Source: Hemiscyllium ocellatum (lineage: Eukaryota). From it: a DNA stretch of 64,000 nt. The stretch spans positions 30,752,001-30,816,000 of the forward strand of contig NC_083420.1 of the NCBI RefSeq assembly GCF_020745735.1, written 5' to 3'. Positions 467 through 53,390 of the stretch are shown here, one piece after another. The notes below the pieces were generated by a model. The model saw only the letters and a program-made list of their open reading frames with translations, was not told the DNA's origin and searched no databases. Position numbers and translations under genes: made by a program. How positions within the stretch are numbered: position 1 is the stretch's first letter; each line of letters begins with the position of its first letter.

Positions 467-2691
467 ATGATGGAGTTAGTGGCATGAAGACTCTGGGATG
501 CCCTTCTGCCTCTCCTGCCGTGTAAAGTCAATGAGTAGATCATTGAGCTCAGTTGTATAGTTAGTGAGGTGGAGGCTAGTAGATTGTGCGAGGAACATTA
601 CTCTGAGCCATGCCATGAATCTCAGTCAACAAAACATTTGAACTGTGAATGGGAAAATTCTTCCATCGTGTCTGTTGTGTAATAGCAAAGAAGGAACATT
701 TGATAATTCAGTGATTAGCTACAAATAAATTAAATAATTTTAGTTTCTTTGTACTGTAAGACTGAAAACATTGCAAGTGACAAATATTCTGAAGACCTAA
801 ATAAATGTCAAATTTTCATTTAATTTACATGCAAAAATATTGGTCAAATAAATAGTTCTTGTAGACAGCTCAAAACCTGTAACGTATGCCTGACATTCCA
901 CAGCTTGGGTTGTAAATCTCTCAACAGCTCATAAAACACTGACATCTACAGAATAGAGGCAATAAATGTAACAAAGACAGATAAGATTCTGCACATGCTT
1001 GCATGCCACTAAATAAAGCTGCCAGAGTACAGGACCACTTGTAATTAGCTTTAACAAATAGGTTTTGCATTTGTTTTGATGCAAAATCAAATAATCTGCC
1101 ATTCTAGTACATTTTATGCATGAAAGTAAAGGTCTGAATAATTCATACGTCATGGATTGGATTAAAATTACAAGATTGGTTCATTTATCTTCTCCAAATT
1201 TACTTATTTGACCAACAACTTTGTTGGTCTACAGATATCCCTATTCTTTGATTTTTGAAGATTTGATGAGGGTGGTTTTGTGATAAGGGTTTGTTTTGTG
1301 ATATGATAAGCTTTTTTTGTTTTGCAAGTGTCCCAATTCAATTGGAAAGAACGGGTAAATAATTGAGGTCCCACTGTACTATAAGCCATCACAAATGTGT
1401 AACAAATCAATTCACCACCAAAATGATCAATATGCCTGAATGACTACCACATAGATCAAAAGTAATTCACACCAGATTTTATCATTAACAGGAAAATAAA
1501 TGTTTATTGTAAACAAACTTATTCATCAACAAATGGCAAAAAAAAATGGTTTGCTTTTTTAAATTTGCTCACAGGATGTGGATGTTGCTGTCTGGGCTAA
1601 TAGTTATTACCCATCCCAAGTTGCCCTATGGTGGGGAGCTGCCTTCTAGAATCACTGCAGTCCATGTGCTGTCAGAACAAATTACGGTGAATAATTACAG
1701 ATTTACTACTATGCATCTTCAGAGGCCATACCCCTTTTAGAACTCCAAACATAAGTATACCTGTTCACAAAAAAGACAGGAAATAAGATGTTTTGACACC
1801 ACTATAGATGGAAAAATATAGACATGGAAAGTTCTGCAGATCAAAGTTCAAACCACATGTGCAGGGAATTATTTCTTAGATTCTTTTGATGTCACCAACA
1901 TGATATTACCCACAGAGTGATGGTTAATATTTGATTCAATAGTTGCTTGGCTGGAACTAGGTGTTCTTGTATAATAGAATCTGTTCTTTTCAGAGTTTCT
2001 AATGCCTGCCCTTTTCCAGAAATTAGCTAAGTATTAATTTTAGTGAATATTTGGAGAGTTACTCTCTGTGAGACCAAGCAAGATTTCTCACACAATTTAA
2101 CAATACTCACCTCATCATCTAAGCACCATGCCTATGCCAATCTTATTTTTTAATTTCAAAAATATACTTTATTCATAAAATAATTTGATGGTCTGTACAG
2201 TTGGTCATGCCATACATATGTAAACATTTACATACAGAGATCAGAATTTATCATTTTTATACAGGTCTGTACATTTTTCAGTCATATGCCCATATATTTA
2301 GCTGAGGTGCCAGCAGAGCCCAAATGACTGCATGGGCCCCCTGTTCTTCTTTAGGCAGGCAGATGTTGCACGGTGGTCTTTCCCCACCGCGCCTTGGCGG
2401 CAGTTGCCCCAAGCTTCAGCGCGCCCCTCAACACATAGTCCTGGACGTTGGAATGTGCCAGTCTGCAACACTCAGTCGGGGTCAACTCCTTCAGCTGGAA
2501 GATCAACAGCTTTCGGACCACCCAGAAAGCGTCCTTCACCGAGTTGATGATCCTCCAGGCACAGTTGATGTTCGTCTCAGTGTGAGTCCTGGGGAACAGG
2601 CCGTACATCACGGCGCTGCTTGGGACGAACCTCAACAAACACCACTGCATTCCTCTCCAGACTTCCTCTGCATAGGCACATTCCAGAAGGA

Positions 2692-3698
2692 AATGTGTTG
2701 CTGGTCAAACACAGCAGGCCAGGCAGCATCTCAGGAATAGAGAATTCGACGTTTTGAGCATAAGTCCTTCATCAAGAATAAGAGAGAGAGAGAGCCAAGC
2801 AGGCTATGATAAAAGGTAGGGAGGAGGGACTAGGGGGAGGGGCGATGGAGGTGGGATAGGTGGAAGGAGGTCAAGGTGAGGGTGATTGAGAACGTGGCTG
2901 AAGAGTTTCTGTGCAGAGGAGATGACCTGGGGGGTGCAGTGAGAGAGGGACTCACTGAAATCCTTGTAGAGGGAGGAAGAGAGCTTCTTCAAGGAAGGCA
3001 TCCTTGTAAGAGGATTCGCAGTAGGTTAAAATCTTCGAGTAAAAAATGAGGTCTGCAGATGCTGGAGATCACAGCTGCAAATGTGTTGCTGGTCAAAGCA
3101 CAGCAGGCCAGGCAGCATCTCAGGAATAGAGAATTCGACGTTTCGAGCATAAGTCCTTCATCAGGAATAAGAGAGAGAGAGAGAGCCAAGCAGGCTAAGA
3201 TAAAAGGTAGGGAGGAGGGACTAGGGGGAGGGGGCGATGGAGGTGGGATAGGTGGAAGGAGGTCAAGGTGAGGGTGATTGAGAACGTGGCTGAAGAGTTT
3301 CTGTGCAGAGGAGATGACCTGGGGGGTGCAGTGAGAGAGAGACTCACTGAAATCCTTGTAGAGAAGCTCTCTTCCTCCCTCTACAAGGATTTCAGTGAGT
3401 CCCTCTCTCACTGCACCCCCCAGGTAATCTCCTCTGCACAGAAACTCTTCAGCCACGTTCTCAATCACCCTCACCTTGACCTCCTTCCACCTATCCCACC
3501 TCCATCGCCCCTCCCCCTAGTCCCTCCTCCCTACCTTTTATCTTAGCCTGCTTGGCTCTCTCTCTCTCTTATTCCTGATGAAGGGCTTATGCTCGAAACG
3601 TCGAATTCTCTATTCCTGAGATGCTGCCTGGCCTGCTGTGCTTTGACCAGCAACACATTTGCAGCTGTGATCTCCAGCATCTGCAGATCTCATTTTTT
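2692..3698. mobile_element. Non-autonomous PLE-derived HHR concatemer (retrozyme-like): ~1.7 tandem minus copies of a ~389-nt unit plus one inverted plus-strand partial copy
   Basis: TSD acattccagaagga at 2678-2691 and 3699-3712; HHR copies at 2744-2779(-), 3133-3168(-), 3571-3606(+); unit tail matches PLE 3' end 18368-18602. Confidence 0.85.
3571..3606 (+). ncRNA. Minimal type I hammerhead ribozyme (PLE family A)
   Basis: attc-CTGATGA-a-gggc/ttat/gctc-GAA-ACGT-C^gaat; GUC triplet, predicted cleavage after 3602. Confidence 0.8.
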
Positions 3699-5757: not shown

Positions 5758-5778
5758 TTTCTTAAATAACAATCTGAT

Positions 5779-6592
5779 GACCACAAGTCCATCAGGAAGT
5801 GGTCAGCACGTAGTGTCCTTGAGACCCTTCAGGAAAAGGAGAGGGTGGATCCTATCAAGTGGTTCCTTGAGCAGAATGCCTCATCGCCAGAACTTTCCAA
5901 CAAGCACCAAGACATGGCTTGGCTGGTGGTGAGAAGGGCTCTGCCTGTGAGATCCTTTATGCACACCCAGATTCTCAGCCCCACCGCACGCTGCCCTCGA
6001 AGCTGCTGCGGAGGAGATGAGACTGTCACACACCTCCTTCTGGAATGTGCCTACGCAGAAGAAATCTGGAGAGGAATGCACTGGTGTTTGTCGAGATTTG
6101 TCCCGAGCAGCGCTATGATGAGGGACTCCGCGCTCTATGGCCTGTTCCCTGGGATGCACACCGAGACGAACATCAACTGTGCCCGGAAGATCATCAACTC
6201 AGTGAAGGATACTCTCTGGGGCGGTCCGAAACCTGTTGATCTTCCAGCTGAAGGAGTTGACCCCGACTGAGTGTTGCAAACTAGCACATTCCAAGGTCCA
6301 GGACTATGTGTTGAGGGACACGCTGAAGTTTGGGGCTACTGCCGCCAAGGCGCGGTGGGGAAAGACCACCGTGTAATATCTACCTGCCTAAAGAAGAACA
6401 GGGAGCCCATGCAGTCATTTGGGCTCTGCTGGCACCTCAGCTAAAAAATGTAATTGTACAGATCTGTAAATAGGAATGATTACTCTGTTTCGGTATGCAA
6501 AGAAATGGAATGTTTGCATATGTATAGCATGTCACTTGTATAGATCAAAGTATTTTATGAATAAAGTATATTTTTGAAATTAAAAAAAAATA
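5779..6592 (+). mobile_element. Tx1/L1-clade LINE 3' fragment (zf-RVT)
   Basis: ORF 5845-6270 with CPRSCCGGDETVTHLLLEC; aataaa and polyA at ~6560-6591; same family as 2148-3833. Confidence 0.85.
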
Positions 6593-7244: not shown

Positions 7245-9889
7245 GAACATAGAACATAGAACATAGAAGGATACAGCGCAGTACAGGCCCTTCGGCCCTC
7301 GATGTTGCGCCGACCGAATCCTACCTAACCTATACTAGCCCAATAACTTCCAAATGCCTATCCAATGCCCGCTTAAATGACCATAAAGAAGGAGAGTTCA
7401 CCACTGATACGGGCAGGGCATTCCATGAACTCACAACCCGCTGTGTGAAGAATCTACCCCTAACATCTGTCCTATACCTACCACCCCTTAATTTAAAGCT
7501 ATGTCCCCTAGTAACACCTGACTCCATTAGCGGTAAAAGGATCTTAGTATCTACCCTATCTAAACCCCTAATCATCTTATACACTTCTATCAGATCTCCC
7601 CTAAACCTTCTCTTCTCCAATGAGAACAGCCCCAAGTGCCTCAGCCTTTCCTCATAAGATTTTCCTACCATTCCAGGCAACATCCTGGTAAACCTCCTCT
7701 GCACTCGTTCTAAAGCTTCCACATCCTTCCTATAGTATGGCGACCAAAACTGCACACAATACTCCAGATGAGGCCTCACCAGAGTCTTATACAACTGCAA
7801 CATGACCTCAGGACTCCGGAACTCAATTCCTCTGCCAATAAAGCCCAGTACACCATATGCCTTCCTCACAGCACTATTTACCTGGGTGGCAACTTTCAGA
7901 GATCTGTGTACATGGACACCAAGATCCCTCTGCTCATCCACACTACCAAGTAGCCTACCATTAGCCCAGTAATCCATCATCTTGTTATTCCTACCAAAGT
8001 GAACGACTTCGCACTTAGCTACATTGAATTCCATTTGCCACATTTCCGCCCAGCTCTGCAACTTATCTATATCCCGCTGTAACCTACCACTTCCTTCCTC
8101 ACTATCCACAACTCCACCGACTTTTGTGTCATCCGCAAACTTGCTTACCCAGCTTTCAAGTCCTTCCTCTAGATCATTTATAAAGATAACAAAAAGCAAT
8201 GGTCCCAAAACAGATCCTTGTGGTACACCGCTAGTAACTGCGCTCCAAGATGAACATAATCCATCAACTACTACCCTCTGTCTCCTTCCAGCCAGCCAAT
8301 TCCTAATCCAAACCTCTAATGTATCCTCAATGCCATACCTCCGAAGTTTTAGCATTAGCCTACCATGGGGAACCTTATCGAACGCCTTACTAAAATCCAT
8401 ATACACAACATCTACTGCTTTACCCTCATCCACTTCCTTAGTCACCTTCTCAAAGAACTCAATAAGGTTTGTGAGGCACGACCTGCCCTTCACAAAACCA
8501 TGCTGGCTATCCCTGATCACGTTATTCCTACCCAGATGTTCATAAATCTTATCCCTTACCATTCTCTCTAAGACTTTGCCCACCACTGAAGTCAGACTCA
8601 CTGGCCTATAGTTACTAGGGCTATCCCTACTCCCTTTCTTGAACAATGGGACCACATTCGCTATCCTCCAGTCCTCTGGTACTATTCCCGTTGACAACGA
8701 CGACATAAAAATCCAGGCCAATGGCTCTGCTATCTCCTCCCTAGCTTCCCATAGGATCCTGGGGTAAATGCCATCAGGCCCAGGAGACTTATCTATATTC
8801 ATCCTTTCCAATATTCCCAAAACCTCTTCCCTGCATATTTCCAGGGCATCCATTCTAATTATTTGTGATTCCATATTCACATCAGCAACAGTGTCCTGTT
8901 CCTGAGTGAATACTGATGAAAAGTACTGATTTAATGTCTCTCCAATCTCCTCCGCCTCCACACACAACTTCCCACTACTATCCTTGACTGGACCGATACC
9001 TACCCTAGTCATCCTTTTATTCTTGACATACCTATAGAAAGCCTTTGGGTTTTCCCTAATCCTACCAGCTAAAGACTTTTCATGTCCCCTTCTCGCTTCT
9101 CTTAGCTCCCTCTTTAGCTCCTTCCTGGCTACCTTATAACTCTCAATCGCCCCTACTGAACCTTCACGCCTCATCTTTACATATGCCGCCTTCTTCCCTT
9201 TCACAAGGGACTCCAATTCCTTACTAAACCACGGCTGCCTCACAAGGCCCTTTACACCATGCCTGACTGGTACATACCTATCGAGGACACGCAGTAGCTG
9301 CTCCTTGAACAATCCCCACATCTCATTAGTGTTCTTCTCTTGAAGCCTGTTTTTCCAATCCACACATCCTAAGTCATGCCTCACAGCATCATAATTGCCC
9401 TGCCCCCAGCTATAGCTCTTGCCCTGCGGCGCACGATTATCCCTCTCCATCACTAAAGTAAAAGTCACCGAGTTGTGCTCACTGTCCCCGAAGTGCTCAC
9501 CTACCTCCAAGTCTAACACCTGGCCTGGTTCATTACCTAGAACCAAATCCAATATAGCCTCCCCTCTTGTTGGCCTGTCGACATATTGTGTCAGGAAACC
9601 ATCCTGCACACATTGTACAAACACCGACCCATCTAATGAACTCGAGCTATAGCTCTCCCAGTCAATATCTGGGAAGTTAAAGTCCCCCATAACAACCATC
9701 CTGCTACCTTCACTCTTTTCCTGAATCATCCTCGCAATATTATCCTCTACTTCTCTAGGACTATTAGGAGGCCTGTAGAAAACACCTAACAGGGTGACCT
9801 CACCTTTCCTATTTCTAACCTCAGCCCAAACTACCTCAGATGGCAAGTCCTCTTCCATCGTCCATTCCACTGCTGTGATACTGTCTTTG
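7245..9889 (-). mobile_element. Young CR1 LINE, 5'-truncated inside the APE domain, with uninterrupted ORF2 (APE part + RT)
   Basis: YRPP, GDFN, SEH, KSPGPDG, NYRPVSL, DFSKAFD, GVPQGSVLGP, FADD motifs; stop at 7330; (TTCTATG)n tail 7243-7268; candidate TSD tagta at 7240-7244 and 9890-9894. Confidence 0.95.
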
Positions 9890-11469
9890 TAGTACTTGTA
9901 AACTCCTGGGTAATTATCAAACTGAATTCTAGCTCCCCACTGGCGTGAAATTAGGTAATAAATGATGAGAGTAAGAAATATTAGAATGCTAAGTGGGGCA
10001 AATGGATGCAAATGAACCTCTTGCAACCTACTAGTGAGCCTCTCATTTTACTGGTCAAACTGTAGTTGAAGAATCGGTCTTTTTCCTCTCTCATTGAGAA
10101 TCTCATTTCTGGCAATCTTGCACTACTTTCCAAAATATTTTTCATCAGGGGCTGGAAAGAATTTGCTCTACAAGTCAGAGTCTAGTATATCTACGATTAT
10201 CCTGTAAATAGTATCTCGCATCTATTGCATTGTAAATAGTGTTGTTTAGAAATCTAAACCTGAAGATGGTTCACGACGTTGCCTTCTTGGTAGCATGGCT
10301 GTGAAGCTCATGGTGTTGCACCAAAGCATAAACTGAAAGAATGGCCATCTTCCTGATGTCTGTATAGTGAAACAGGATGCCATTGATGACTACCAGTCAC
10401 TTCACAATATAGCAGGAACACCAGTGACCCTGCTAGGACTCAGCTGCACTGTCGGGGAAACAGAGCCAATAAGATCTATAATCTGAGTCTGGTGTCAAGA
10501 AGGAAAATGGAGATGTGTCCTGGGCCACCGATGGACCTAGCATGACATTTTACAATCAGTTCATCAACCTGATACACCTATAACTTCAGTGGGTAGGTCT
10601 TGCTCCCTGAGATCCACCCATCTCCTTGATAATAATCAAGAACAAATGACGCCCAACAGTTAGATCCCTGAACTCCTTTCACCTTTGTAATATGCAAGGA
10701 GGATTGAAGGCCCTGAACATATGACTTCAAATCCTAATAGGATTCTCGATAGAAAGGATGCCAACTAAAGAACGTGAAAAGTAAGAATTCAGGAAACAAA
10801 GAATCTGACTCACAGTGCCAGAAACACAAGGCCGTGGTTTACTTGCTTTAATTATCTTTGTTGTCTTCCTCAGCTGTGAGAATCATAAATCATTTCAATA
10901 CTTGCATTTAACTTGATAAGCAAGAAATCAAGTACAAATTCAGGATTCACACTTGAGAATAACGAGTGGAATTATGTTAATAGATGTTTATTGGTTTCAG
11001 TGAGGATATCAGTGCCGCAGCACAAGCATCTTTGGAAATTATTGCAGTGTAACAAGTTCCATCATTACTTGCTGAAACTTTGTAAGGAATAATAGCACTT
11101 TTCACTGTACTAGTCGTGTGATACTCAGCCCAATCACCCTAAATTTTGTTTGAGCAATGAGATAGCAGAAAAAGTACCACTGTGCTTTTGGATATGGTAG
11201 GGTAGATTTTCAACATTTTCATCGAGGTATTGATGGCTGGATTTGCAGATTGGAAATTCTGAAGAGAAGGTTAGCTACTCATTATGGAATCAAGCTGAGT
11301 TTTCTATCACTGAAATATGCAATATCTCTGACCTGACAACAATTTCTGAAGTCCCCATGTATGCAACTAAACAGGAAAGTTGAGAGGTTGCTGTTTTTTT
11401 TCTGTGATTCTTGACATGTTTTACAACTGAAGCTGTGATATCAGGTCTGTGATTTACCATTTTAAAAAA

Positions 11470-15285: not shown

Positions 15286-16797
15286 TGTAATTGTTTTGTA
15301 GAAGTCCAACATGGTTCTTTATTGAGACGATCCACCTAGATGATTTGATAGTCACTCAAATTTAATGGTGCAGGTCATGTATAATGGATTTCAGTGGAGA
15401 GGTCTCACTGTATGGAGGCTTGTTATAGTTTATCCTGTTATCAGTTCCCTATGGAAAGTTTGTCAGGTTGAGGATTATTATGAACATATTTGTACTTGAG
15501 ATTTAGCCTTCAAGCAAATAAGTTGATACTTTTTTTTTGTTTTAAGGATCGTTACCTAAATCACCTGTCAGAGGAAAGCAGTTACTCTGCACCTATGAAT
15601 AATAAAACCAGCATCTCCAAGGAACATTTTTAGTAAATCATCAGTATCTGTCCTTTCCAGACAATTTGACTTTGGCTAACATTGGTTGCAATCTTAGTAA
15701 ATTTCAAAATTGACACTGGAAAAATGTCAAATACTTTTCTATCAGTGAGGCAAAATACTTCTGCTTGAAAGGATGATCAAGCAAATCAATGGTCTCTCTA
15801 GCAGTATCATATAAATATTGTCCTGCCTATTATTGTTGTCAGAGATGCTGACAGTCAGCAGTTGGCTCTGCGAGGATCTGCTTTGGGTTGGTTTGCTGCA
15901 ACTTATTCTTCTTGTAATCGTCGGTAGAGATCACAAATATTTAGTGAAGGATTAACTAATAGTCTTTAGCTGAAGTGCAAGTGTTCGAGTAATGAGGAAT
16001 ATTTACTACATAATAAAATAACAGGTAATATTAGTTTAGACTGGTTAAAGACATTTATACTAGATAAGAGACATTGTTACCTCCTAAGAGTTAATAATTA
16101 GATTTATCCTACATGACATAGACTGAAGAAGCAACTAACAACAAACCAATACTAACTCCTCTTAAAACAATATTTATATAATTGTATAAACAGTGAGTGA
16201 AGCTATTTCAAAGTTTAGTTAACTTTTTCAGGCCTATATACTTTTGAAACAATTGCTCCCCATGCACATTTATTTCCTTTCATTACCTCATTATAAAGTT
16301 CCTCAATAAGAACATCCAGACCATCACTATCATCTTTTCCCGAGTCTCTTATTTTACAAATTTTTCTTGACTTAGATGAATAGTTGGCCATTTGCTTTGG
16401 AATGATCAACTCAGCTCATATAATTCTGTCCCCCTGGTGGGTCTTAATATCTTGAGTGCTTTTTGCTGAAGACATTTGTTGGTGTTGGTATTGAGGGTGA
16501 TTGTTTCCCTGTCTGGAAGAGCTTTACTTTTGTCAAAAGGTATAATGGAAGGCATTTAAGGTGAAGGAAATAAGCTTCTTATTTTGACATTGTCACAATG
16601 TAGATTTAGATGAATACCTTTCACAATTACACCTGTTCTTTTAGCTAAAGCCAACATCTTGTTTGTATTTGATGGCATCAATGGCACTGCTTGCATCATA
16701 TTGGCAATCTCTTTCTGAACAATTGTCTTCTCTGGACTGACTGTTTTAAGAGTTTATCTGGTTTCAGATAATTGTTCCACTTGCTGAAAGTCAAGTC

Positions 16798-18318
16798 ATG
16801 ACTTTAGTCCAAGAACTCCCCACCTACGTTCGGGATACCACCCACGCCCTCTATCTCCTCCATGATTTTTGCTTCCCCGGTCCCCAACGCCTTATCTTCA
16901 CGATGGACATCCAGTCCCTGTACACCTCCATCCCCCATCACGAAGGACTCAAAGCCCTCCGCTTCTTCCTTTCCTACCGCACCAACCAGTACCCTTCCAC
17001 TGACACCCTCCTTCGACTGACTGAACTGGTCCTCACCCTGAATAACTTCTCTTTCCAATCCTCCCACTTTCTCCAAACTAAAGGAGTTGCCATGGGCACC
17101 TGCATGGGCCCCAGCTATGCCTGTCTCTTTGTAGGATATGTGGAACAGTCCATCTTCCGCAACTACACTGGCACCACCCCCTACCTTTTCCTCCGCTACA
17201 TCGATGACTGTATCGGCGCTGCCTCGTGCTCCCACGGGGAGGTTGAACAGTTCATCAACTTTACCAACACCTTCCATCCCGACCTCAAATTCACCTGGAC
17301 TGTCTCAGACTCCTCCCTCCCCTTCCTAGACCTTTCCATTTCTATCTCGGGTGACCGACTCAACACAGACATCTACTATAAACCGACTGACTTCCACAGC
17401 TACCTGGACTACACCTCCTCCCACCCTGCCCCCTGTAAAAACTCCATTCCATATTCCCAATTCCTTCGTCTCCGCGGCATCTGCTCCCAGGAGGACCAGT
17501 TCCAATACTGTACAGCCCAGATGGCCTCCTTCTTCAAGGACCGCAGATTCCCCCCAGACGTGATCGACGATGCCCTCCACCGCATCTCCTCCACTTCCCG
17601 CTCCTCCGCCCTTGAGCCCTGCCCCTCCAACCGCCACCAAGACAGAACCCCACTGGTTCTCACCTACCACCCCACCAACCTCCGTATACAGCGTATCATC
17701 CTCCATCATTTCCGCCAACTCCAAACGAACCCCACCACCAGGGATATATTTCCCTCCCCTCCCCTATCAGCGTTCCGCAAAGACCACTCCCTTCGTGACT
17801 CCCTCGTCAGGTCCACATCCCCCACCAACCCAACCTCCACTCCCGGCACCTTCCCCTGCAACCGCAGGAAATGCAAAACTTGCGCCCACACCTTCTCCCT
17901 TACTTCTCTCCAAGGCCCCAAGGGATCCTTCCATATCCACCACAAATTCACCTGCACCTCCATACACATCATCTATTGCATCCGCTGCACCCGATGTGGC
18001 CTCCTCTATATTGGGGAGACAGGCCGCCTACTTGCAGAACGCTTCAGGGAACACCTCTGGGACGCCCGAACCAACCAACCCAACCACCCCGTGGCTCAAC
18101 ACTTTAACTCTCCCTCCCACTCCACCGAAGACATGCAGGTCCTTGGACTCCTCCATCGCCAGAACATAACAACACGACGGTTGGAGGAAGAGCGCCTCAT
18201 CTTCTGCCTTGGAACCCTCCAGCCACAAGGGATGAACTCAGATTTCTCCAGTTTCCTCAATTCCCCTCCCCCCACCTTGTCTCAGTCGATTCCCTTGAAC
18301 TCAGCACCGCCCTCCTAA
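16798..18318 (+). CDS. PLE reverse transcriptase + GIY-YIG endonuclease (N-terminally truncated; ATG supplied by the TSD)
   Basis: MDIQSLYT, GVAMG, RYIDD, FLD, YYKPT, CxRxxCKTC, IIYCIRC..C.LLYIGETGR.L.ERFREH motifs. Confidence 0.9.
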   Translation: MTLVQELPTYVRDTTHALYLLHDFCFPGPQRLIFTMDIQSLYTSIPHHEGLKALRFFLSYRTNQYPSTDTLLRLTELVLTLNNFSFQSSHFLQTKGVAMGTCMGPSYACLFVGYVEQSIFRNYTGTTPYLFLRYIDDCIGAASCSHGEVEQFINFTNTFHPDLKFTWTVSDSSLPFLDLSISISGDRLNTDIYYKPTDFHSYLDYTSSHPAPCKNSIPYSQFLRLRGICSQEDQFQYCTAQMASFFKDRRFPPDVIDDALHRISSTSRSSALEPCPSNRHQDRTPLVLTYHPTNLRIQRIILHHFRQLQTNPTTRDIFPSPPLSAFRKDHSLRDSLVRSTSPTNPTSTPGTFPCNRRKCKTCAHTFSLTSLQGPKGSFHIHHKFTCTSIHIIYCIRCTRCGLLYIGETGRLLAERFREHLWDARTNQPNHPVAQHFNSPSHSTEDMQVLGLLHRQNITTRRLEEERLIFCLGTLQPQGMNSDFSSFLNSPPPTLSQSIPLNSAPPS

Positions 18319-18600
18319 CCTGCAATCCTCTTCCTGACCTCTCCGTCCCCACCCCACTCCGGCCTATCACCCTCACCTTGACCTCCTTCCACCTATCACA
18401 TCTCCATCGCCCCTCCCCCCAAGTCCCTCCTCCCTACCTTTTATCTTAGCCTGCCTGGCACCCTCTCCTCATTCCTGATGAAGGGCTCTGGCCCGAAACG
18501 TCGAATTTCCTGTTCCTTGGATGCTGCCTGGCCTGCTGTGCTTTAACCAGCAACACATTTTCAGCTCTGATCTCCAGCATCTGCAGACCTCACTTTTTAC
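16802..18600 (+). mobile_element. Penelope-like element (family A), 5'-truncated, with 3' pLTR
   Basis: Intact RT + GIY-YIG ORF; TSD tcatga at 16796-16801 and 18601-18606. Confidence 0.95.
18471..18506 (+). ncRNA. Intact minimal type I hammerhead ribozyme in the PLE pLTR
   Basis: attc-CTGATGA-a-gggc/tctg/gccc-GAA-ACGT-C^gaat; perfect stem II, predicted cleavage after 18502. Confidence 0.85.
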
Positions 18601-19310
18601 TCATGAAGGATTCCCCATATGTGAGGAACCAGTAAACAGTTTGTCCTTGCCAGAGAAATCTGTGGTTTCTTCTCTGTTGGTAGTATTAAGCTAGTATTTA
18701 TCATCTCACCTGGTGTGTGTACATTTCTAGGTTCAGAATCCTTTTGAGATTTGTAAAGTCTCCTTTTTGCTGATATATATCAAGTCAGTCAGAGGTTATT
18801 ATCTTTTTTGGGTGGTTGGTATTTTCCCTCAAATTTTAAAATGTTTAGGTCAAAACATGTCTTTTTGCTCAGAAGTAAAGTCTTGCTCTGAATGATGTAA
18901 GCATGTTTTGCAAACTGATAATCTTCGTTTCTTAAAAATAAAGCTTTTACCATTGCTTTAATCATAAGGGTTGTTCTGTCAACTGTGTAACATCAGATCA
19001 GTAGGTTGCAACTTTAGGCTTTTCAACAAACGAACTTTATCTGTGAAACTTGCTTTTGTATCAAGCTTAAACTGAGGTGAATATTCATTGACACAGATGA
19101 TCTCTGTCAAGTTCAGATAAATCATTTATTCTTTCGCGGAATTGCTGTGGTATTTCTTTGGAGAAAGTAGATGTAAGGACACATGTTTTAATAGAAGTAT
19201 GTATTGGGTATCTGAGTTTTTCTATTGTTTTGGTAAAACGTTTTGACTTATTTACCCAAAGAGAATACTGATGAAAACAGTACTGTTGCAAACAGTATTC
19301 TCTCTGTTTA

Positions 19311-19442
19311 TAGAGTCATAGAGATGTACAGCATGGAAACAGACCCTTTGCTCCAACTCATCCATGCCGACCAGATATCCTAACCTAATCTGGTTCCATT
19401 TGCCAGCACTTGGCCCATGTCCCTCCAAACCCTTCCTGTTCA
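19311..19442 (-). mobile_element. CR1 3' tail fragment
   Basis: tagagtcatagag tail plus CR1 3'UTR. Confidence 0.85.
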
Positions 19443-19980
19443 AGTATTGTTTCTGGTTTTCAAAATGTTTTCATCATGTGCCACTTTCTTGCAGAGGTGA
19501 ACTTGCTGTAATAAATATTGAGTTTGTTTTGTCTGTGTTTTTCTGCTCCACATCTTGGAAAGTGACTCCTAGCATCTAGAAAGTTGAACACTCATTGTGA
19601 TGTTTTGTTGTATGATAAATTGAAGTGCTTGTGCCTTAAGTTGATCGTACCCGCGGCCTTCTATCCCCCAGGCTTCTGTCTTTTCAGGACCTCATTTTCT
19701 AACACAATCCAAATCTGAATAGTCTGTGCTGGAGAAACTTTCCTTCAATTCTAATGTATAAAAACAATCAATCAGATCAATGACAGTTCTGGCTCTAATC
19801 AGTATTTTTGTTATCGGATAGTCACAAGATTCAGACAATCTGCAAAGTTCATTGATAAAATTGTCAGCAAATTCTGCTAGAAATTTCATTCTATCAATGG
19901 AACTTGAACTTGAAATGAAGTGCAATTGGTTATTGAAGTAAATTGGTCAATTTTTTAAAAGATATCATCAAAGGTACCAG

Positions 19981-20082
19981 AGGTTCTGAAAAAGGGTCAC
20001 TGGACTCGAAGTGTTGACTCTGCATTCTCTGCTCAAATGCTGCCAGACCTGCTGAGTTTCTCCAGCAATTTCTGTTTCTGTA
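19981..20082 (+). mobile_element. PLE-type pLTR fragment (family C) with degenerate HHR
   Basis: ctgaaaaagggtcactggactcgaag..gctgccagacctgctgagtttctccagca; TSD caaaggta(c/t)cag at 19969-19980 and 20083-20094. Confidence 0.7.
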
Positions 20083-20670
20083 CAAAGGTATCAGTATCTT
20101 CAACTTTTTAACTGTTGGTAACATGGTTTGCTCATGGTTCCAAAGAATAAAGTGTGTGTTGATTGTTCTGCTTGTGTCTTGGTATGTAGATCTGAAGCAC
20201 TCCTGAATGGCAGAAATATCGTCGACAATATTGTGCATTAATTTTCTATGTTAACTCTTTGTGGATCTTGAATTTCCCTGAATATGTAACAACTTTTTCA
20301 TTTAATTGTTAAATTAAGGTGCTCATATTAAAAATTCTGAAAGATTTTTAATGTTTACTTCTCTAAGTTACAATCGTGGTTTCAACTCAACTACTGTAAT
20401 GCCAGACAGAGTTAATTTTTTAAAGAATTGTTACTAAGTTATGATTTTTGGTAAAAGTAAGATTTTCAAACATTTTTAATGGCTGTCATGTAGTATGTTT
20501 TAACAGTTTCTTTTTCAAATTTTCTTTGATTTCTTTTCTCTGTATTTTACACCTCTTTAAAGAAAGGCTCTAACAACCTGTATTGTAAAAAAAGTGCATC
20601 AATAAAGCTTTCAATTAATTTTGAATTTTAAGATTTGAGGTGTTGTAAATCTCCTTAAACCTTTTAGTCA

Positions 20671-20848
20671 ATGGATTGGCCATGCTAAATTGCCCTGTAG
20701 TGTCCAGCGCTGTGCAGGCTGGGTGGATTAAGCAATGGGAATTGTAGAGTTACAGGGATGGGATAGGTCTTGGTGGGATGCCCTTTGGAGAGTCAGTGTG
20801 AACTCGATAGGCTGAATTGCCTGCTTCTAAGCCATTGGGATTCTATGA
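20671..20848 (+). mobile_element. HE1-type SINE 3' half
   Basis: tggattggccatgctaaattgccc...gggattctatg. Confidence 0.75.
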
Positions 20849-20930
20849 AACTTTAAGTTCTTATAAAGATAACATTTTCTTGCCATTTTGCCCTTCTTGG
20901 TGGGTTTATGTGCCTTTCTCACCAAGACTA

Positions 20931-21368
20931 TAGGATGATGCTGAACAGGTTGGGGCTGTTTTAACTGGAGTGTCGGAGGCTGAGGGGTGACCTTATGGAA
21001 GTTTATAAAATCATGAGGACCATGGATAGGATAAATAGACAAGGTCTTTCCCCTGGGGTGGATGAGTCCAGAACTAGAGGGCATAGGATTAGGGTGAGAG
21101 GGGAAAGATATAAAAAAGACCTCAGGGGCAACTTTTTCACGCAGAGCATGGTGCGTGTATGGAATGAGCTGCCAGAGGAAGTGGTGGACGCTGGCACAAT
21201 TGCAAACATTTAAAAGGCATCTGGATGGGTACATGAATAGGAAGGGTTTAGAGGGATATGGGCTGGGTGCTGGCAAATGGTACTGGATTGAGTTGGGATA
21301 TCTGGTCGGCATGGACGAGTTGAACTGAAGGGTCTGTTTCCATGCTGTACATCTCTATGACTCTATGG
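20931..21368 (+). mobile_element. CR1 3' fragment
   Basis: LNRLGLF.LE.RRLRGDLMEVYKIM..TRGH..FFTQ.MVRVWNELP; ctatgactctatg tail. Confidence 0.9.
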
Positions 21369-21634
21369 ATAATTATTGCTGTTTCTTCTGCTTCCTCAAC
21401 TACTTCATACCATTTTGCCTCTCTAAATACATCATATGCTTTTTGCACTGAAAATAATTTGCATTATACAATCAAAATGTATTTTTATTACAATTTGGAT
21501 GGATTTGCTGCCAACAACTCTCTTGTAATAAAGTTTTCCAGTCTTAACTAATGAAGGTTTGATGACCTATAGCTCTTTGGCAGAGGAGACACTTGAATAA
21601 GTATAAATCACTTATTACATAATTGCAAGGAACT

Positions 21635-21957
21635 TTAGATTAGATTCCCCACAGTATGGAACCAGGCCATTTGTTCCAAGTCCACACCAACCATCTGAAG
21701 TGTAACCCACCCTGATCCATTCCCTTACTCTATATTTACCTATGACTAATGCACACTGTGGGCAATTTGGCATGGCCAATTCACCTGGCCTGCACATCTT
21801 TGGATTGTGGGAGGGAACCAAAGCATCCAGAGGAAACCCATACCGACATGGGGAGAATGTGCAAACTCCACACTGACAGTTTCCTGAGTGTGGAATCGAA
21901 CGTGGGTCCCTGGTGCTGTGAGGCAGAAGTGCTAACTACTGAGCCACTGCGCCACCC
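21635..21957 (-). mobile_element. HE1-type V-SINE, full length
   Basis: Reverse complement of tRNA head and V-domain; aatctaatctaa tail. Confidence 0.85.
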
Positions 21958-22728
21958 ATTAGATTAAGACAAGTTAACAAACTTAAACCTAGGTAAGAAG
22001 TATTGTTGTCTGCCAAGTGATAGTAACTAGGTCTACACAGCATGACTCGAGACCGAAGACCTGATTAAAAATGAACAATAAAGTGATTAGCTCTTCCCCG
22101 AATCTCACTTCTGTACCAATGTACAGTGCTATTACAAAGCTCTTGAGTTAATCTTTCAGGCCAACTGTCTCAGACACTAGTTATTGTGCCTGATTTAAGT
22201 CTTGCTGTGTGTATCCGACTACATCAGTTGTGGAAATGTGAAGTTAGGTAAGTATCGGTTGTCTTGGATGATTTGCGTCAGCTGATGTTTGCCGCATCTG
22301 ATTTGATATTACGATGACACTGGAGTTAAAAATCATCTTTACTGATCATGAAAAATAGATGCTAACCAGTTGGCAGCTATTTCACATTCTCATGTGCAGT
22401 ACAAGCCTCTTTCAGTCATAACTTTAAAACATAAACTACAATCATTTTGAAATCTTTCACAACCAAGTTTTGATTTTCTGATGGTCACTGAAAGGCAATG
22501 AAAATCAGCTGGCTTTTACAATTTTTTTCCATAGATTCAGAATCATTTTGAGTCTCTGGAAGTTTCTAATTGAGTAGCCAAGGTAGAATTCATCAATTTG
22601 AATAGACAAACCAGAAGATAGACTCCTATTATTAACTGCTGACTTACTCAAAACTAAAATCTTGACTTCACATCACTGAATTAAAAAAAAGTAACAAAAA
22701 GAGCTGCGCGAAAACTATTTAAGCATAA

Positions 22729-22924
22729 TTTGGAGAAGCTGGTGTTGGACTAAGGTGTACAGAGTTACAAATCACACAACACCAGGTTATAGTCCAACAG
22801 GTTTAATTGGAAGCACTAGCTTTTGGAGTACTGCTCCACAACCACCTGATGAAGGAGTGGAGCTCTGAAAGCTAGTGCTTCCAATTAAACCTGTTGGACT
22901 ATAACCTGGTGTTGTGTGATTTGT
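22729..22924. mobile_element. PLE family B hairpin insertion containing an HHR (22843-22877, +)
   Basis: Perfect 61-bp inverted arms 22763-22823 / 22868-22928; TSD aactatttaa(g/t)cataa at 22713-22728 and 22925-22940. Confidence 0.85.
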
Positions 22925-23398
22925 AACTATTTAATCATAAGTAGCTTTGCATAATCAATCCACTTTCCTACTTTGAGGAAATTTATACTTTCCAATCATT
23001 CCAGGTAGATGTTACAAATTTTGATCAGGCAGGTGACCTGATTTTGAAATAACAAATATTTCTCATCCAAGAACCGGGGAGAAACCAAACCAGTCTGTAA
23101 TCAGCAGCTAAAGAGATGGAAAGAGTCAGAGCAATTACATCTTACCAAACTGGAGACATCAACATCTGAGTCTGTTCATGCTCATTTCTAACAATATTGA
23201 AACTGGGGTCTCTCCTAGTAATGAAACTACAAGAAACCAATTTTTGAGTTGCTCAGGATCCAATTGTTTGAAGTAATTCTGAAAAATTCCAGATATATGA
23301 CACTGGCTATCTACCTGGACTACCCTTCACTGGAGTAAACACTTCCTTCATCAGACCCACATGCATGATTTTACGCAAGATGAACCAAACAAGTATGT

Positions 23399-49137: not shown

Positions 49138-52100
49138 CTGTCTCTCTCAAAATTAACACCCAAGTCTTCAGTTCAACATTGTTAATGCTACACAAGTGAG
49201 CAGTCACATATAGATGTCAAGCATAAACTAATTCTAGACTAATGTTATTGGGCAATAAATCATATGTCAATAAGAAATCTGCATATGGATTCAAGTACTT
49301 CTATAAGCATGATGAAAATCATATACAATTATTACTTTTAGCATTTTCTGTCAAAGGCAGAATTTAAGTCCTCTTCACCTTCCTGCCACCCGAGGAAAGG
49401 TCAAAGGCCAAGGGTAAGTGAGAGGGAGGGTATGGGCTGGAGTTGCTGTTGCCTTCCCACTTCCCTCCAGTTCAGTCTGGGCCAAGAAGCTGCAGATGGC
49501 CCTCCTGCCAACACACCAATTGAAATCATTCAATTGTTCAACCAGCAGCTAGTGGTTGAGTTGGGGTATACAGCAAACCCTGCCATGTTTTCCTACAGCT
49601 ATCCATCATTCAAAGGCACTCTATGCTTGATTGAGGGACCCAGCATTGGGGAGGAGAAGCCAACTCCCTGCCCTTGATGTTAATCCAATTCTCTGACAAC
49701 CCCATCTTAGCCTGCTTACTCGTCTCCAGAGGATATACTGCTGATCTCCAGGTAGCCCCCACTGTAGCAATGACAGCAACTTCTAATCCTAGAGCATTGT
49801 CTATACTGAACAACTGTTGGACTCTCAGCAGTAGCTCATGGGTGAGATTCCCACCCAGGTGAAGCCTCAATTCGGTTTGAGGGCCAGTACTGTCCAGGTA
49901 AATGCCTGATTCCCTCACAATAACATTGAGTCTCTCCACGGAGAAGCAACAAGAGGCAGGACCCATGTTGCCATCACTAAATTCAAGCCCGGATTTTCTG
50001 GTTCTCTTTTGACCATGTTTTGATTGCATGTTTTCCTTGAGTTAAAAACAATTAAACACTGACTGACACATTAATGTTCCACCTAGTTTCTCTGTATTGT
50101 ACATGATCCATTTGGCATTGCACACTCCATTTAAAAGATTGCCATTTGACTTCATGTATGCACATCTCAGTGTTTTCTTGCACAGCCTGTTTGCCCTCTT
50201 CAGAGTAAATTCTGGACTGCTGTGTGCCTTCACGTCTCTGCAAATCAGAGGAATATTTTTAGATAGGTACTTACCTGAAAAATACAAGTTCAAAAAGGAA
50301 CTAGACTATAAGTCTTCAATCTGGACTTGTTTGAACAAAAGTTAGCATCAGGAAAGTGGACTCTCAGTCTTTGGAAAAAAAAACACGAGAAGCTCCCAGG
50401 GGCATGGGAACGCAGCACTGTGGTTGGAAACCTATGATATTTATTGGTGTTTTAGCACCATTTGTTGGGGCTTTAATCTCTCAAATCAGAATCCTTTGCA
50501 AATTTCATTCAAATATGCTTTATAAGAAATATACAATTTTTCTGTGACTGCCAGAGTCATGGAATGGTCCCATTTCTAGTCTGTTCAATCTCTTTATGAT
50601 GTGAATGACACTTTTTTCCTTTGCATCAAAAAAATTCAGATTTCCACAAATATTGACATTTTGGTAATTACGTTACTACAACAAAAAAGAGTTACAAACT
50701 AATTGTCATGTGAATATGTATTTCTGGAGTACCGCAGTCACTGTAGCACTGCAGTCACATTCCAAGTATCAGTGTATTGACCCACCTGTCATATGGGGAG
50801 ATGCATAAAATAAATTCTGTGAAGCTCCTTTATTTTGAGTATTTCTAAATTATTGGAAGGAGAAAATATTTCATGGTGGCAGATGGTACCTTTGAGTAAA
50901 AATACAAACATTGAAGAAATCTGATCCTCAATTAGGTTGAAAATCAACCCAAATTTGTGCTGTCCAATGATAGTAAAACTGAGTGAACTGGACAAAGCAA
51001 AATGGCTACCATCGCTTAAAAAAAACATTTCAAGAAAATCGGAATGCTCACGGTTCATAGATACATTTGAGAAGTTGAAACAAAAGTGCAGACTGTCATT
51101 CAGTAGCTTTCCAAATGGAGAAGAAAAGATTAGCTCCATCCTTCTTGTTGCCAGGAGAGAGAGAGAGGATGAAATGTGTTTGATGCTGGGAGCTGAATGG
51201 AGAAAACAGCAGAAACTCAAGCAAAGTTCTGAAGACAGATATGCACATGTCTCCTGTCACGTTCACATCACAGAATTTACTGATATGTATTTCAAGGCTG
51301 GATATAACAATGATATCGATAATTCCTTAACATGGAATGTGAGAATGAGAAGTAAAAGAAACCAAATGTCCGTACCACACCAAGGTGATGATGAATGTGA
51401 GGATATAACAGACAAAGGAACCATACAGTGCAAGAAATGACTCAATGTAACATTTCTCAGAGAAAAAGCTATTCACACAACAATGCAGATTATGAACAGG
51501 GTATAAAGGAAGCTGAAGATTATTGAGGGGTGCAGAATAAAATTAACCCTCATGCTGAAGATCTTCCCAGTAAATTTTAAAGAGAATGAATTCTCAAGGA
51601 AAGGCACTTTGAAAGTGAGCAAAGTCATGGTAATGCCATAGGGGGCAAAGTGAGGTCTGACATGAGGAACAACCCAAATCAGAGTGATGTTAAAAATAGA
51701 ATGATGCTTACTGCAAGTTGGACATGACTGAAACAGACAGTGCTGTTATCTTGGGGTTGAACAGTTGTACAAAGCAGCAACTTACCTCAGTAAATCTTGA
51801 GGTAGAAAGATCCAATTACCCATTAGGGAGTGGATGTAACATCACTGAAACTGAGTCAAATTAGAGATGAGACCAGAAAAGATGAAGAATTATAGATACT
51901 TCCAGCAAGTGATCGAGGGATTATCTGTTAAGATAATAGCAAACATAGCCAGCTACACGATATATCACAGATGACACCCCACTTGAAGATGTTATGCTTG
52001 CTGATTCTGGAATAATCAGACCCAAAACGATGTAGAAAGAACTTCTCCACAAGATAAATGAAGCCGACTTGTGAATGGAGAACTGTGAGCTCAGAGCCAG

Positions 52101-52319
52101 ATCATCCATTTACAGGATAGCATCAGCAAAAAACATTGAAAGAATGGTTTATACATACAATGTATACTAGGAGGACAAAGGTATACTTTAAAAAAAGGTA
52201 ATGACCGTATCTAAATACCACTCTGACTGTAGCAGACTATAGGGAATCTGTTGTCAACAAGCAGGAATAATATTTTATAGGCCCAAATCATTCAATCTGA
52301 TTCAGAATCCATATTTTCA

Positions 52320-53390
52320 GTTCAAATCAGACAAAGTGTGACCTACTCAAATGAGTACTGTGAAATGTTTACAAGTTGCCACTTATGGCGCCATCTTAGG
52401 CACAAGGTACAGATTCTTCAGGATAAATTTTTAGGAAAAACAATAAGTCCAGCATTGATGATCATAGGAATAAATTAGAAAACTAGAGAAGTAAAAAGTT
52501 CCGAACAATAGTCCTCCCAACCCAGTTGGTGGCTGGCATCTAGCCTGCAGTTCACACTGGGCCTTGACTCCAGCCCTCGCTGGAACTCATCTCAAGACTC
52601 TCAAGGCTAGGATACTGCTCGGGAATCACCTCAAGGCCAAATATCCATGCTAAGGACAAGCCAAGCTGAAAAAACGCCACTTACTGCTGACAGACCACCA
52701 CACCAGGCCAAGAGACCACCACACCAGGCCAGGAGACCACCACACTGGGCCACTGAGAGACCGCCACACCTGGACAGGAGATTGCCACACCAGGCTGGGA
52801 GACCACCATACTAGGCCACTGAGAGACTGCCACGTTAGGCCGAGGGACCACCACACCAGGCCAAGAGACCACCACGCCAGGCCAGGAGACCACCACACTG
52901 GGCCACTGAGAGACCGCCACACCTGGACAGGAGATTGCCACACCGGTCTGGGAGACCACCATACTAGGCCACTGAGAGACTGCCACGTTAGGCCGAGAGA
53001 CCACCACACCAGGCCAGGAGACCACCATGCCAGGCCAGGAGACCACCACACTGGGCCACTGAGAGACAGCCACACCTGGACAGGAGATTGCCACACCGGG
53101 CTGGGAGACCACCATACTAGGCCACTGAGAGACTGCCACGTTAGGCCGAGAGACCGCCACACCAGACCAGGAGACCACCATGCCAGGCCAAGAGACCGCC
53201 ATGCCAGGCCAGGAGACCACCATGCTGGGCCATCCACGCCAGGCCAGGAGATCACCATACCAGGCCGGGAGGAGGCCTCGTCGAGTATATGCTGAGGTCA
53301 GGAGTGAGAGACCAAGAGGAATAAAGAGAGAAGAGGAAAGCAATACAGAAGAGAAGAGAAAAAAAAGAAATGGACAAAGTGGATGAGCTC
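52320..53390 (-). mobile_element. Putative SINE-like element with LINE-type 3' tail and internal VNTR
   Basis: Minus-strand tail aagatggcgcc...tgtaaacatttcacagtactcatttgagt, pyrimidine-rich 5' part at 53320-53390, GC-rich array inside; boundaries approximate. Confidence 0.4.
52691..53268. repeat. Minisatellite with 153-bp higher-order repeat (21/24-bp monomers)
   Basis: Units 21+21+24+21+21+24+21 repeated at 52691, 52844 and 52997, followed by simple monomers. Confidence 0.95.

Follow-up and report, generated by a model that had tools for sequence, protein, structure and literature searches.

A dead Ty3/Gypsy retrotransposon in Hemiscyllium ocellatum, very probably from a subfamily that encoded Gag, protease and a long tail and has no detectable pol enzymes

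Long terminal repeat (LTR) retrotransposons generally have TG...CA ends and are flanked by target-site duplications of 4-6 bp (PMC12440569). Elements of the Mag lineage carry two CCHC arrays (PMC2577118), and most mosquito Mag elements have a tRNA-Leu primer site and 5-bp duplications, with tabulated LTRs of 119-304 bp (PMC3286476). Gypsy elements with only Gag and protease are already documented in plants. TR-GAG elements carry only Gag, or Gag plus protease, between their LTRs, have no reverse transcriptase (RT) or integrase, and need an autonomous partner (PMC6022998). The wheat elements RLG_Sabrina_SA and RLG_WHAM, termed 'semi-autonomous', likewise have no RT or integrase and depend on an autonomous partner (PMC9744471). 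Here we describe a related fossil in a 64-kb stretch of DNA (hereafter, the window) from Hemiscyllium ocellatum, a species with a 3.98-Gb genome. Positions 22179-15834 of the window, read on the minus strand, are one old, dead Ty3/Gypsy LTR retrotransposon copy. It has an LTR at each end and a probable 5-bp target duplication in which one base differs, and six younger insertions interrupt it. This copy very probably belongs to a subfamily that encoded Gag, a protease and a tail of ~270 codons. Neither RT, RNase H nor integrase is detectable in this subfamily, which was likely copied with the enzymes of pol-bearing family members.

The shark family resembles the single-open reading frame (ORF) Ty3/Gypsy Gag-Pol elements (P0010 and P0011, the fish proteins P0006 and P0014, and Ty3, 7q5b). 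Its Gag is 38-43% identical to theirs in the matched part, it has two knuckles, a D-T-G protease and TG...CA LTRs, and its pol-bearing copies keep the order RT-RNase H-integrase. Unlike these elements, the tail-bearing subfamily has an unrelated-looking segment of ~650 nt that replaces RT, RNase H and integrase. Two CCHC arrays and a tRNA-Leu primer site are shared with Mag, as would be the probable 5-bp duplication, whereas the ~1.1-kb leader and the 418-bp LTR, longer than the tabulated LTRs, set the family apart from the mosquito elements. Micropia/Mdg3 likewise has two CCHC arrays. Together the knuckles, primer site and probable duplication, rather than an RT phylogeny, point to a Mag-like family. 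The subfamily is like TR-GAG and Sabrina_SA/WHAM in having Gag and protease without detectable RT or integrase and in forming its own multi-copy group; unlike those plant elements of other lineages, it lived in a vertebrate, is long dead, and has a long tail apparently fused in frame after the protease. No description of a Gag-protease-only Gypsy element in cartilaginous fish, or of this family, was found in searches of literature listings, and Repbase, Dfam or supplementary files may hold the family. The parts of the window copy, all on the minus strand and in the order in which the element is read, are as follows.

22180..22184, minus strand: probable target-site duplication, 5' copy, ATAAC; four of five bases equal the 3' copy
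21490..22179, minus strand: 5' LTR, split by a short interspersed nuclear element (SINE); final ~40 nt missing from the window copy; identity to the 3' LTR 62% and 68%
21368..21487, minus strand: leader remnant, non-coding, holding the KAYDVF peptide
20851..20927, minus strand: leader remnant
20302..20670, minus strand: leader, with stops common to the copies in all three frames
19600..20301, minus strand: gag capsid region, starting at an ATG common to 27 of 35 copies
19465..19561, minus strand: two CCHC zinc knuckles, damaged in the window copy, from column tallies across copies
18837..19310, minus strand: linker and aspartic protease, active site near 19062, D-T-K in the window copy and D-T-G in most copies
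18604..18836, minus strand: first part of the tail, with no counterpart detected in pol-bearing copies
16416..16799, minus strand: tail, second part; no homologue found
16252..16415, minus strand: tail end and purine-rich tract, common to pol-bearing copies (z 8.2)
15834..16251, minus strand: 3' LTR, 418 bp, TG...CA ends, from block boundaries in copies
15829..15833, minus strand: probable target-site duplication, 3' copy, ATAAT, the bases beyond the LTR end

The extent of the element was established from its repeats. A DNA search with positions 16790-15700 found many genome copies that match just a ~420-bp block with a sharp start at 16251 and a sharp end at 15834. This block is repeated at the 5' end of the element, where the SINE interrupts it, and stands upstream of the internal part in at least nine other copies. 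Its presence at both ends in the window and in these copies therefore identifies it as an LTR, although the 5' LTR of the window copy has lost its end and has a mutated start. The same placement led us to reject the block as the 3' end of an element like a long interspersed nuclear element (LINE). A second whole tandem copy at 23.3-21.4 kb, suggested by a loose pairwise alignment, was also rejected (score 325 versus 273-302 in shuffles), and only its LTR part held.

The original prediction was a dead ORF of ~1,100 codons in an unassigned fossil element, stitched across six nested insertions. Its upstream pieces are not coding. The piece at 22660-22185, with a Cys-rich peptide, lies outside the element because the element ends at the 5' LTR start and its flanking ATAAC; this piece has 9, 11 and 14 stops per 158 codons in the three frames and no paralogue by protein search. 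The segment 22179-21494 corresponds to the 5' LTR and is paralogous to 16251-15834, and the KAYDVF piece is non-coding leader. Of the 3,442 nt proposed for joining, ~2,030 nt are coding and ~40% are flank, LTR or leader. More broadly, the flank at 22185-23390 has no paralogue by protein search and one 44-bp DNA match elsewhere.

The ancestral reading frame was found without a consensus sequence, by counting the codon positions at which at least 40% of the copies have a stop. The common stops in the three frames number 0/11/20 in gag and 0/13/10 in the tail, compared with 5/7/8 in the leader and 11/7/10 in the LTR, and 150 column shuffles of the tail never gave a frame with fewer than two. The ATG shared at 20301, the family stop located 7 nt inside the 3' LTR (window 16244) and the stop-free frames in gag and tail therefore define an ORF of ~675 codons, running in the window from 20301 to ~16244 and encoding Gag, two CCHC knuckles, an aspartic protease and the ~270-codon tail. 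The family stop is TAA in 22 of about 42 sequences, and the window copy reads AAA, so that the previously proposed end at 16215 is a read-through of this copy. From linker to tail a single frame suffices: columns missing from the model (+5, +1 and +4) account exactly for the apparent shifts between linker, protease and tail. At 16390 the column holds TGA in nine copies, CAA in five and CGA in one, a pattern that we take to be expected from CpG decay of an arginine codon.

The window copy carries ~15 in-frame stops (16 were counted, one of them seen twice at the duplication flanking a Penelope-type insertion) and many frameshifts. The stop-poor segment at 19925-19443 that had drawn attention to the locus is real (161 codons with 2 stops, versus 11.9 in shuffles; P=0.0002), and a further stop-poor frame spans 18998-18603. 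The frame at 19925-19443 coincides with the open frame of the family in some places and departs from it in others, and the peptide previously read across the Penelope duplication (LLVPHIWGILH-DLTFSK) lies outside it.

Protein comparisons place the coding region with Gypsy. A profile built from five in-frame copy fragments matched 18 of 5,143 candidate proteins at E<=0.001, with the Gag-Pol proteins P0010 and P0011 at 1.3e-19. P0010 comprises gag, protease, RT, RNase H and integrase domains, and its best match in the Protein Data Bank (PDB) is Ty3 Gag-Pol (7e-89), compared with 7e-27 for the best retrovirus. In a frameshift-aware alignment, with X at the breaks, the window gag was placed at 20214-19680 with a score of 64 versus 31+-3 for shuffles. 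Comparison of the copy profiles by hhalign gave probabilities of 99.9 for gag and of 68 and 56 for the protease, and protein searches of the shark's own genome returned paralogues at 30-45% identity. Other searches were uninformative: single window fragments gave nothing useful in Pfam and PHROGs scans, a window fragment alone matched 0 of 186 candidates in the homologue search, and the gag profile had no match among PDB sequences. Neither RT, RNase H nor integrase was detected after the protease of the window copy by frameshift-aware alignment or by copy-profile and DNA-profile comparisons.

The family has two structural types. Counting the window copy, and as lower bounds, at least 79 regions of the genome have matches, 55 with internal sequence and 24 with LTR only within the fetched stretch. 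Among the 55, the tail is represented by at least 150 columns in 32, and 30 have the tail plus gag or protease. A DNA search with the tail added 11 loci, all in this Gypsy family and none with pol. Four copies (C200, C17, C112 and C61) instead carry integrase remnants in the orientation of the element; three of these also have RNase H, and C61 has the first 160 residues, or first half, of RT. The order protease-RT-RNase H-integrase is seen in C61 and in part in the other three. Their pol DNA is ~59-78% alike, and their LTR and gag are the same as those of tail-bearing copies. Given the tail in 32 of 55 regions and pol remnants in four, we conclude that the tail-bearing copies form a non-autonomous subfamily. 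A tree of 26 copies is a star that does not separate the two types.

The boundaries of the exchanged segment are apparent in DNA comparisons. Tail-bearing copies and C61 share DNA as far as the protease end (window 18837, z 11.3), and similarity to the pol type resumes from ~16416 (z 8.2). The ~650 nt between these points have no pol match (z<=1.7 against the integrase region, and 1.1 and 2.4 against the start of RT).

The leader is ~1.1 kb in the family, of which the window copy has lost ~570 nt plus the primer site. Twelve other copies retain sequence downstream of the 5' LTR that matches the 3' end of tRNA-Leu genes (mean 8.6 versus 6.5, z 7.3), in a comparison made against the tRNA-Leu genes of this genome only. 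A purine-rich run before the 3' LTR was seen by eye.

The copies are on average 60-65% alike, as are, at 62-68%, the LTRs of the window copy. The terminal branches of the 26-copy star tree are mostly 0.22-0.39, and the window copy sits on an ordinary long branch. These findings indicate one old burst followed by neutral decay, and a codon-position test among main-family copies is flat, as expected for such decay. A dN/dS (nonsynonymous to synonymous rate) test between copies, as originally proposed, is therefore largely uninformative, and selection is visible only between subfamilies. A diverged sister subfamily of two copies (L202 6477-8731 and L203 5849-8132; support 0.998) also has the tail. 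Changes common to both sister copies fall preferentially at third positions in gag (P=0.001), and the excess is borderline both for linker plus protease and for the tail (P=0.057 each).

Six younger insertions interrupt the window copy.

21634..21961, minus strand: SINE in the 5' LTR, with a flanking duplication; five further matches in the window
20928..21367, plus strand: end of a CR1-type LINE, 5'-truncated, with a translation like the C-terminus of the 905-aa LINE ORF of the window
20672..20850, plus strand: SINE fragment
19983..20081, strand not assigned: 99-bp repeat inside gag, with a flanking duplication (11 of 12 bases)
19311..19442, minus strand: insertion of a CR1-type 3' tail
16800..18603, plus strand: Penelope-type element with RT and GIY-YIG, flanked by the duplication tcatga

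Flanking duplications are clear at three of these, namely the LTR-borne SINE, the 99-bp repeat and the Penelope element. Paralogous copies are without the six insertions and are collinear across the insertion sites at 60-69% identity. For example, a paralogue on C4 is collinear with 20351-20084, 19976-19443, 19249-18611 and 16753-16328, at 61-69% DNA identity, and is uninterrupted. The element therefore predates the insertions. Thus, the original prediction was correct in tracing the dead coding sequence of a fossil element through six insertions younger than itself, and its stitching of the downstream half is real. Its size and extent were not borne out, the identity it left blank is Gypsy Gag, protease and tail, and the insertions lie side by side in the old element, none inside another.

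Some observations concern these younger repeats themselves. The SINEs of the window are presumably of a type like HE1 of cartilaginous fish. The open 905-aa LINE ORF (7330-10047, minus strand) has endonuclease and RT domains (RVT_1, E 6.7e-35) and is a young copy, presumably of CR1 type. A LINE fragment with zf-RVT lies at 5770-6270 (plus strand; E 1.6e-10), with a similar-looking fragment at 2351-2704 (minus strand). The Penelope-type insert contains a 522-codon open stretch (16750-18318, plus strand) with the RT and GIY-YIG matches.

Starting from the observed structure, homologies, undetected pol, multi-copy spread and pol-bearing relatives, established retrotransposon biology suggests how the family may have spread. 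A master copy would have been transcribed from its own 5' LTR, and one Gag-protease-tail polyprotein would have built particles and packaged the element RNA. RT and integrase would have been supplied in trans by pol-bearing relatives, with tRNA-Leu and the purine tract as primers of reverse transcription; integration would have made the 5-bp duplication. After one old burst, the window copy would have decayed neutrally and taken the six younger insertions.

Several observations weigh against this account. The protease match is weak in single copies (Pfam E 0.02; window score 29 versus 18), and the window knuckles by themselves do not reach significance. In the tallies across copies, the final Cys of the second CCHC array fell outside the columns counted. 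At the two junctions flanking the knuckles, one frame is favoured by pluralities only (14 of 32 and 11 of 23 copies). The duplication bases ATAAC/ATAAT agree at four of five positions in the window, and of the four loci that look like solo LTRs, just one is flanked by a clean duplication of 5 bp. None of the copies found has a complete pol, and the YxDD catalytic motif of RT was seen in none of them; therefore, the helper is one that we infer. A search of the genome with pol DNA, dominated by matches to a SINE, gave two pol-region matches, neither of which matched the family model or pol proteins.

Other Gypsy remnants were also encountered. Pol or gag remnants on the opposite strand, in or beside family copies (G000:C4 near 11270000-11271300, G000:C9 near 54007000-54010700 and G000:C15 near 84144800-84146300), are probably separate insertions. 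In the window, a second Gypsy-type integrase zinc-binding remnant at 51993-52150 (plus strand; score 51 versus 30 for shuffles) does not match the family model. Just downstream is a compound tandem repeat (52687-53222; periods of 21, 66, 87 and 153 bp) that is open in several frames.

The tail is the one unexplained part of an otherwise largely ordinary fossil. It has no common stop in one frame across copies and is present in the diverged sister subfamily. No consistent Pfam family was found among 13 members, a word search of 5.8 billion proteins with 8,000 candidates scored gave none at E<=0.1, and there was no match among 1.84 billion protein representatives. The tail profile had no match among PDB sequences, and a 51-residue stretch gave only sub-threshold matches against the Atlas. 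The queries are decayed fragments, and these negatives are therefore weak evidence of novelty. For a 155-residue part, AlphaFold returned a low-confidence, unusable model (predicted template modelling score, pTM, 0.25).

It is quite possible that the tail is only the 3' half of an integrase that a deletion fused in frame to the protease and that many rounds of copying have eroded past detection. The tail occupies the position of pol and its last ~165 nt are common to pol-bearing copies (z 8.2); moreover, when aligned as DNA, the tail faintly and collinearly resembles the 3' half of integrase, and the highest profile score has its end at a collinear place. In contrast, hhalign gave P>=0.1 in all three frames, and the protein profile reached z<=0.3 in the open frame. 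The protease control was itself weak in this assay (z 1.5, 5.3 and -0.3), and the protein-profile test is therefore of limited power. The DNA profile likewise gave z<=1.7 against the integrase region, nhmmer --max found no match of the tail in three pol-bearing copies in which gag and LTR match strongly, and the lack of any match among 1.84 billion proteins also counts against an integrase.

A less probable explanation is that the frame was kept open only so that translation stops at the LTR, for example avoiding nonsense-mediated decay, and that the peptide had no function. The third-position excess of the tail between subfamilies is borderline (13/82, 15/89 and 22/82) and falls below that of gag, and the poorly predicted fold of the 155-residue part would fit such a peptide. 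However, the trend has the same direction and P value as that of linker plus protease, and the same frame is readable in both of the sister-subfamily copies, just two being available.

We consider it rather unlikely that an ancient Gypsy subfamily of vertebrates exchanged the entire block of RT, RNase H and integrase, in frame, for a domain of ~270 residues, either captured or newly evolved and without a living homologue. Such a domain would have been selected in two diverged lineages and would have come to outnumber its autonomous parent in surviving copies, perhaps as an accessory protein aiding the recruitment of helper enzymes or the packaging of its own RNA.

Two readings of the whole locus can be largely set aside. 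An endogenous retrovirus that carried an env-like gene besides gag and protease might explain the TG...CA LTRs, the tRNA primer site, the pair of CCHC knuckles and the ORF region that directly precedes the 3' LTR, but it is very improbable: the Gag matches are Gypsy Gag-Pol proteins, and the tail is apparently fused in frame to the protease, has no stretch of transmembrane strength (maximum mean hydropathy 0.64 over 19 columns) and has no Pfam match. Even less credible is a single ~1,100-codon gene of an unassigned element, or a domesticated host gene, for which the stop-poor frames speak and which the LTR pair and common-stop test rule out, along with the flank, LTR and leader identity of the upstream pieces, the in-frame stops and frameshifts, and the ordinary long branch in the star tree.

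For annotation, a puzzling stitched ORF is thus resolved into a defined repeat family that has LTRs, a leader and a primer site and comes in two structural types. Should the tail be an accessory domain that was under selection, it would count as an extinct protein domain and would hint at how non-autonomous elements vie for helper enzymes.

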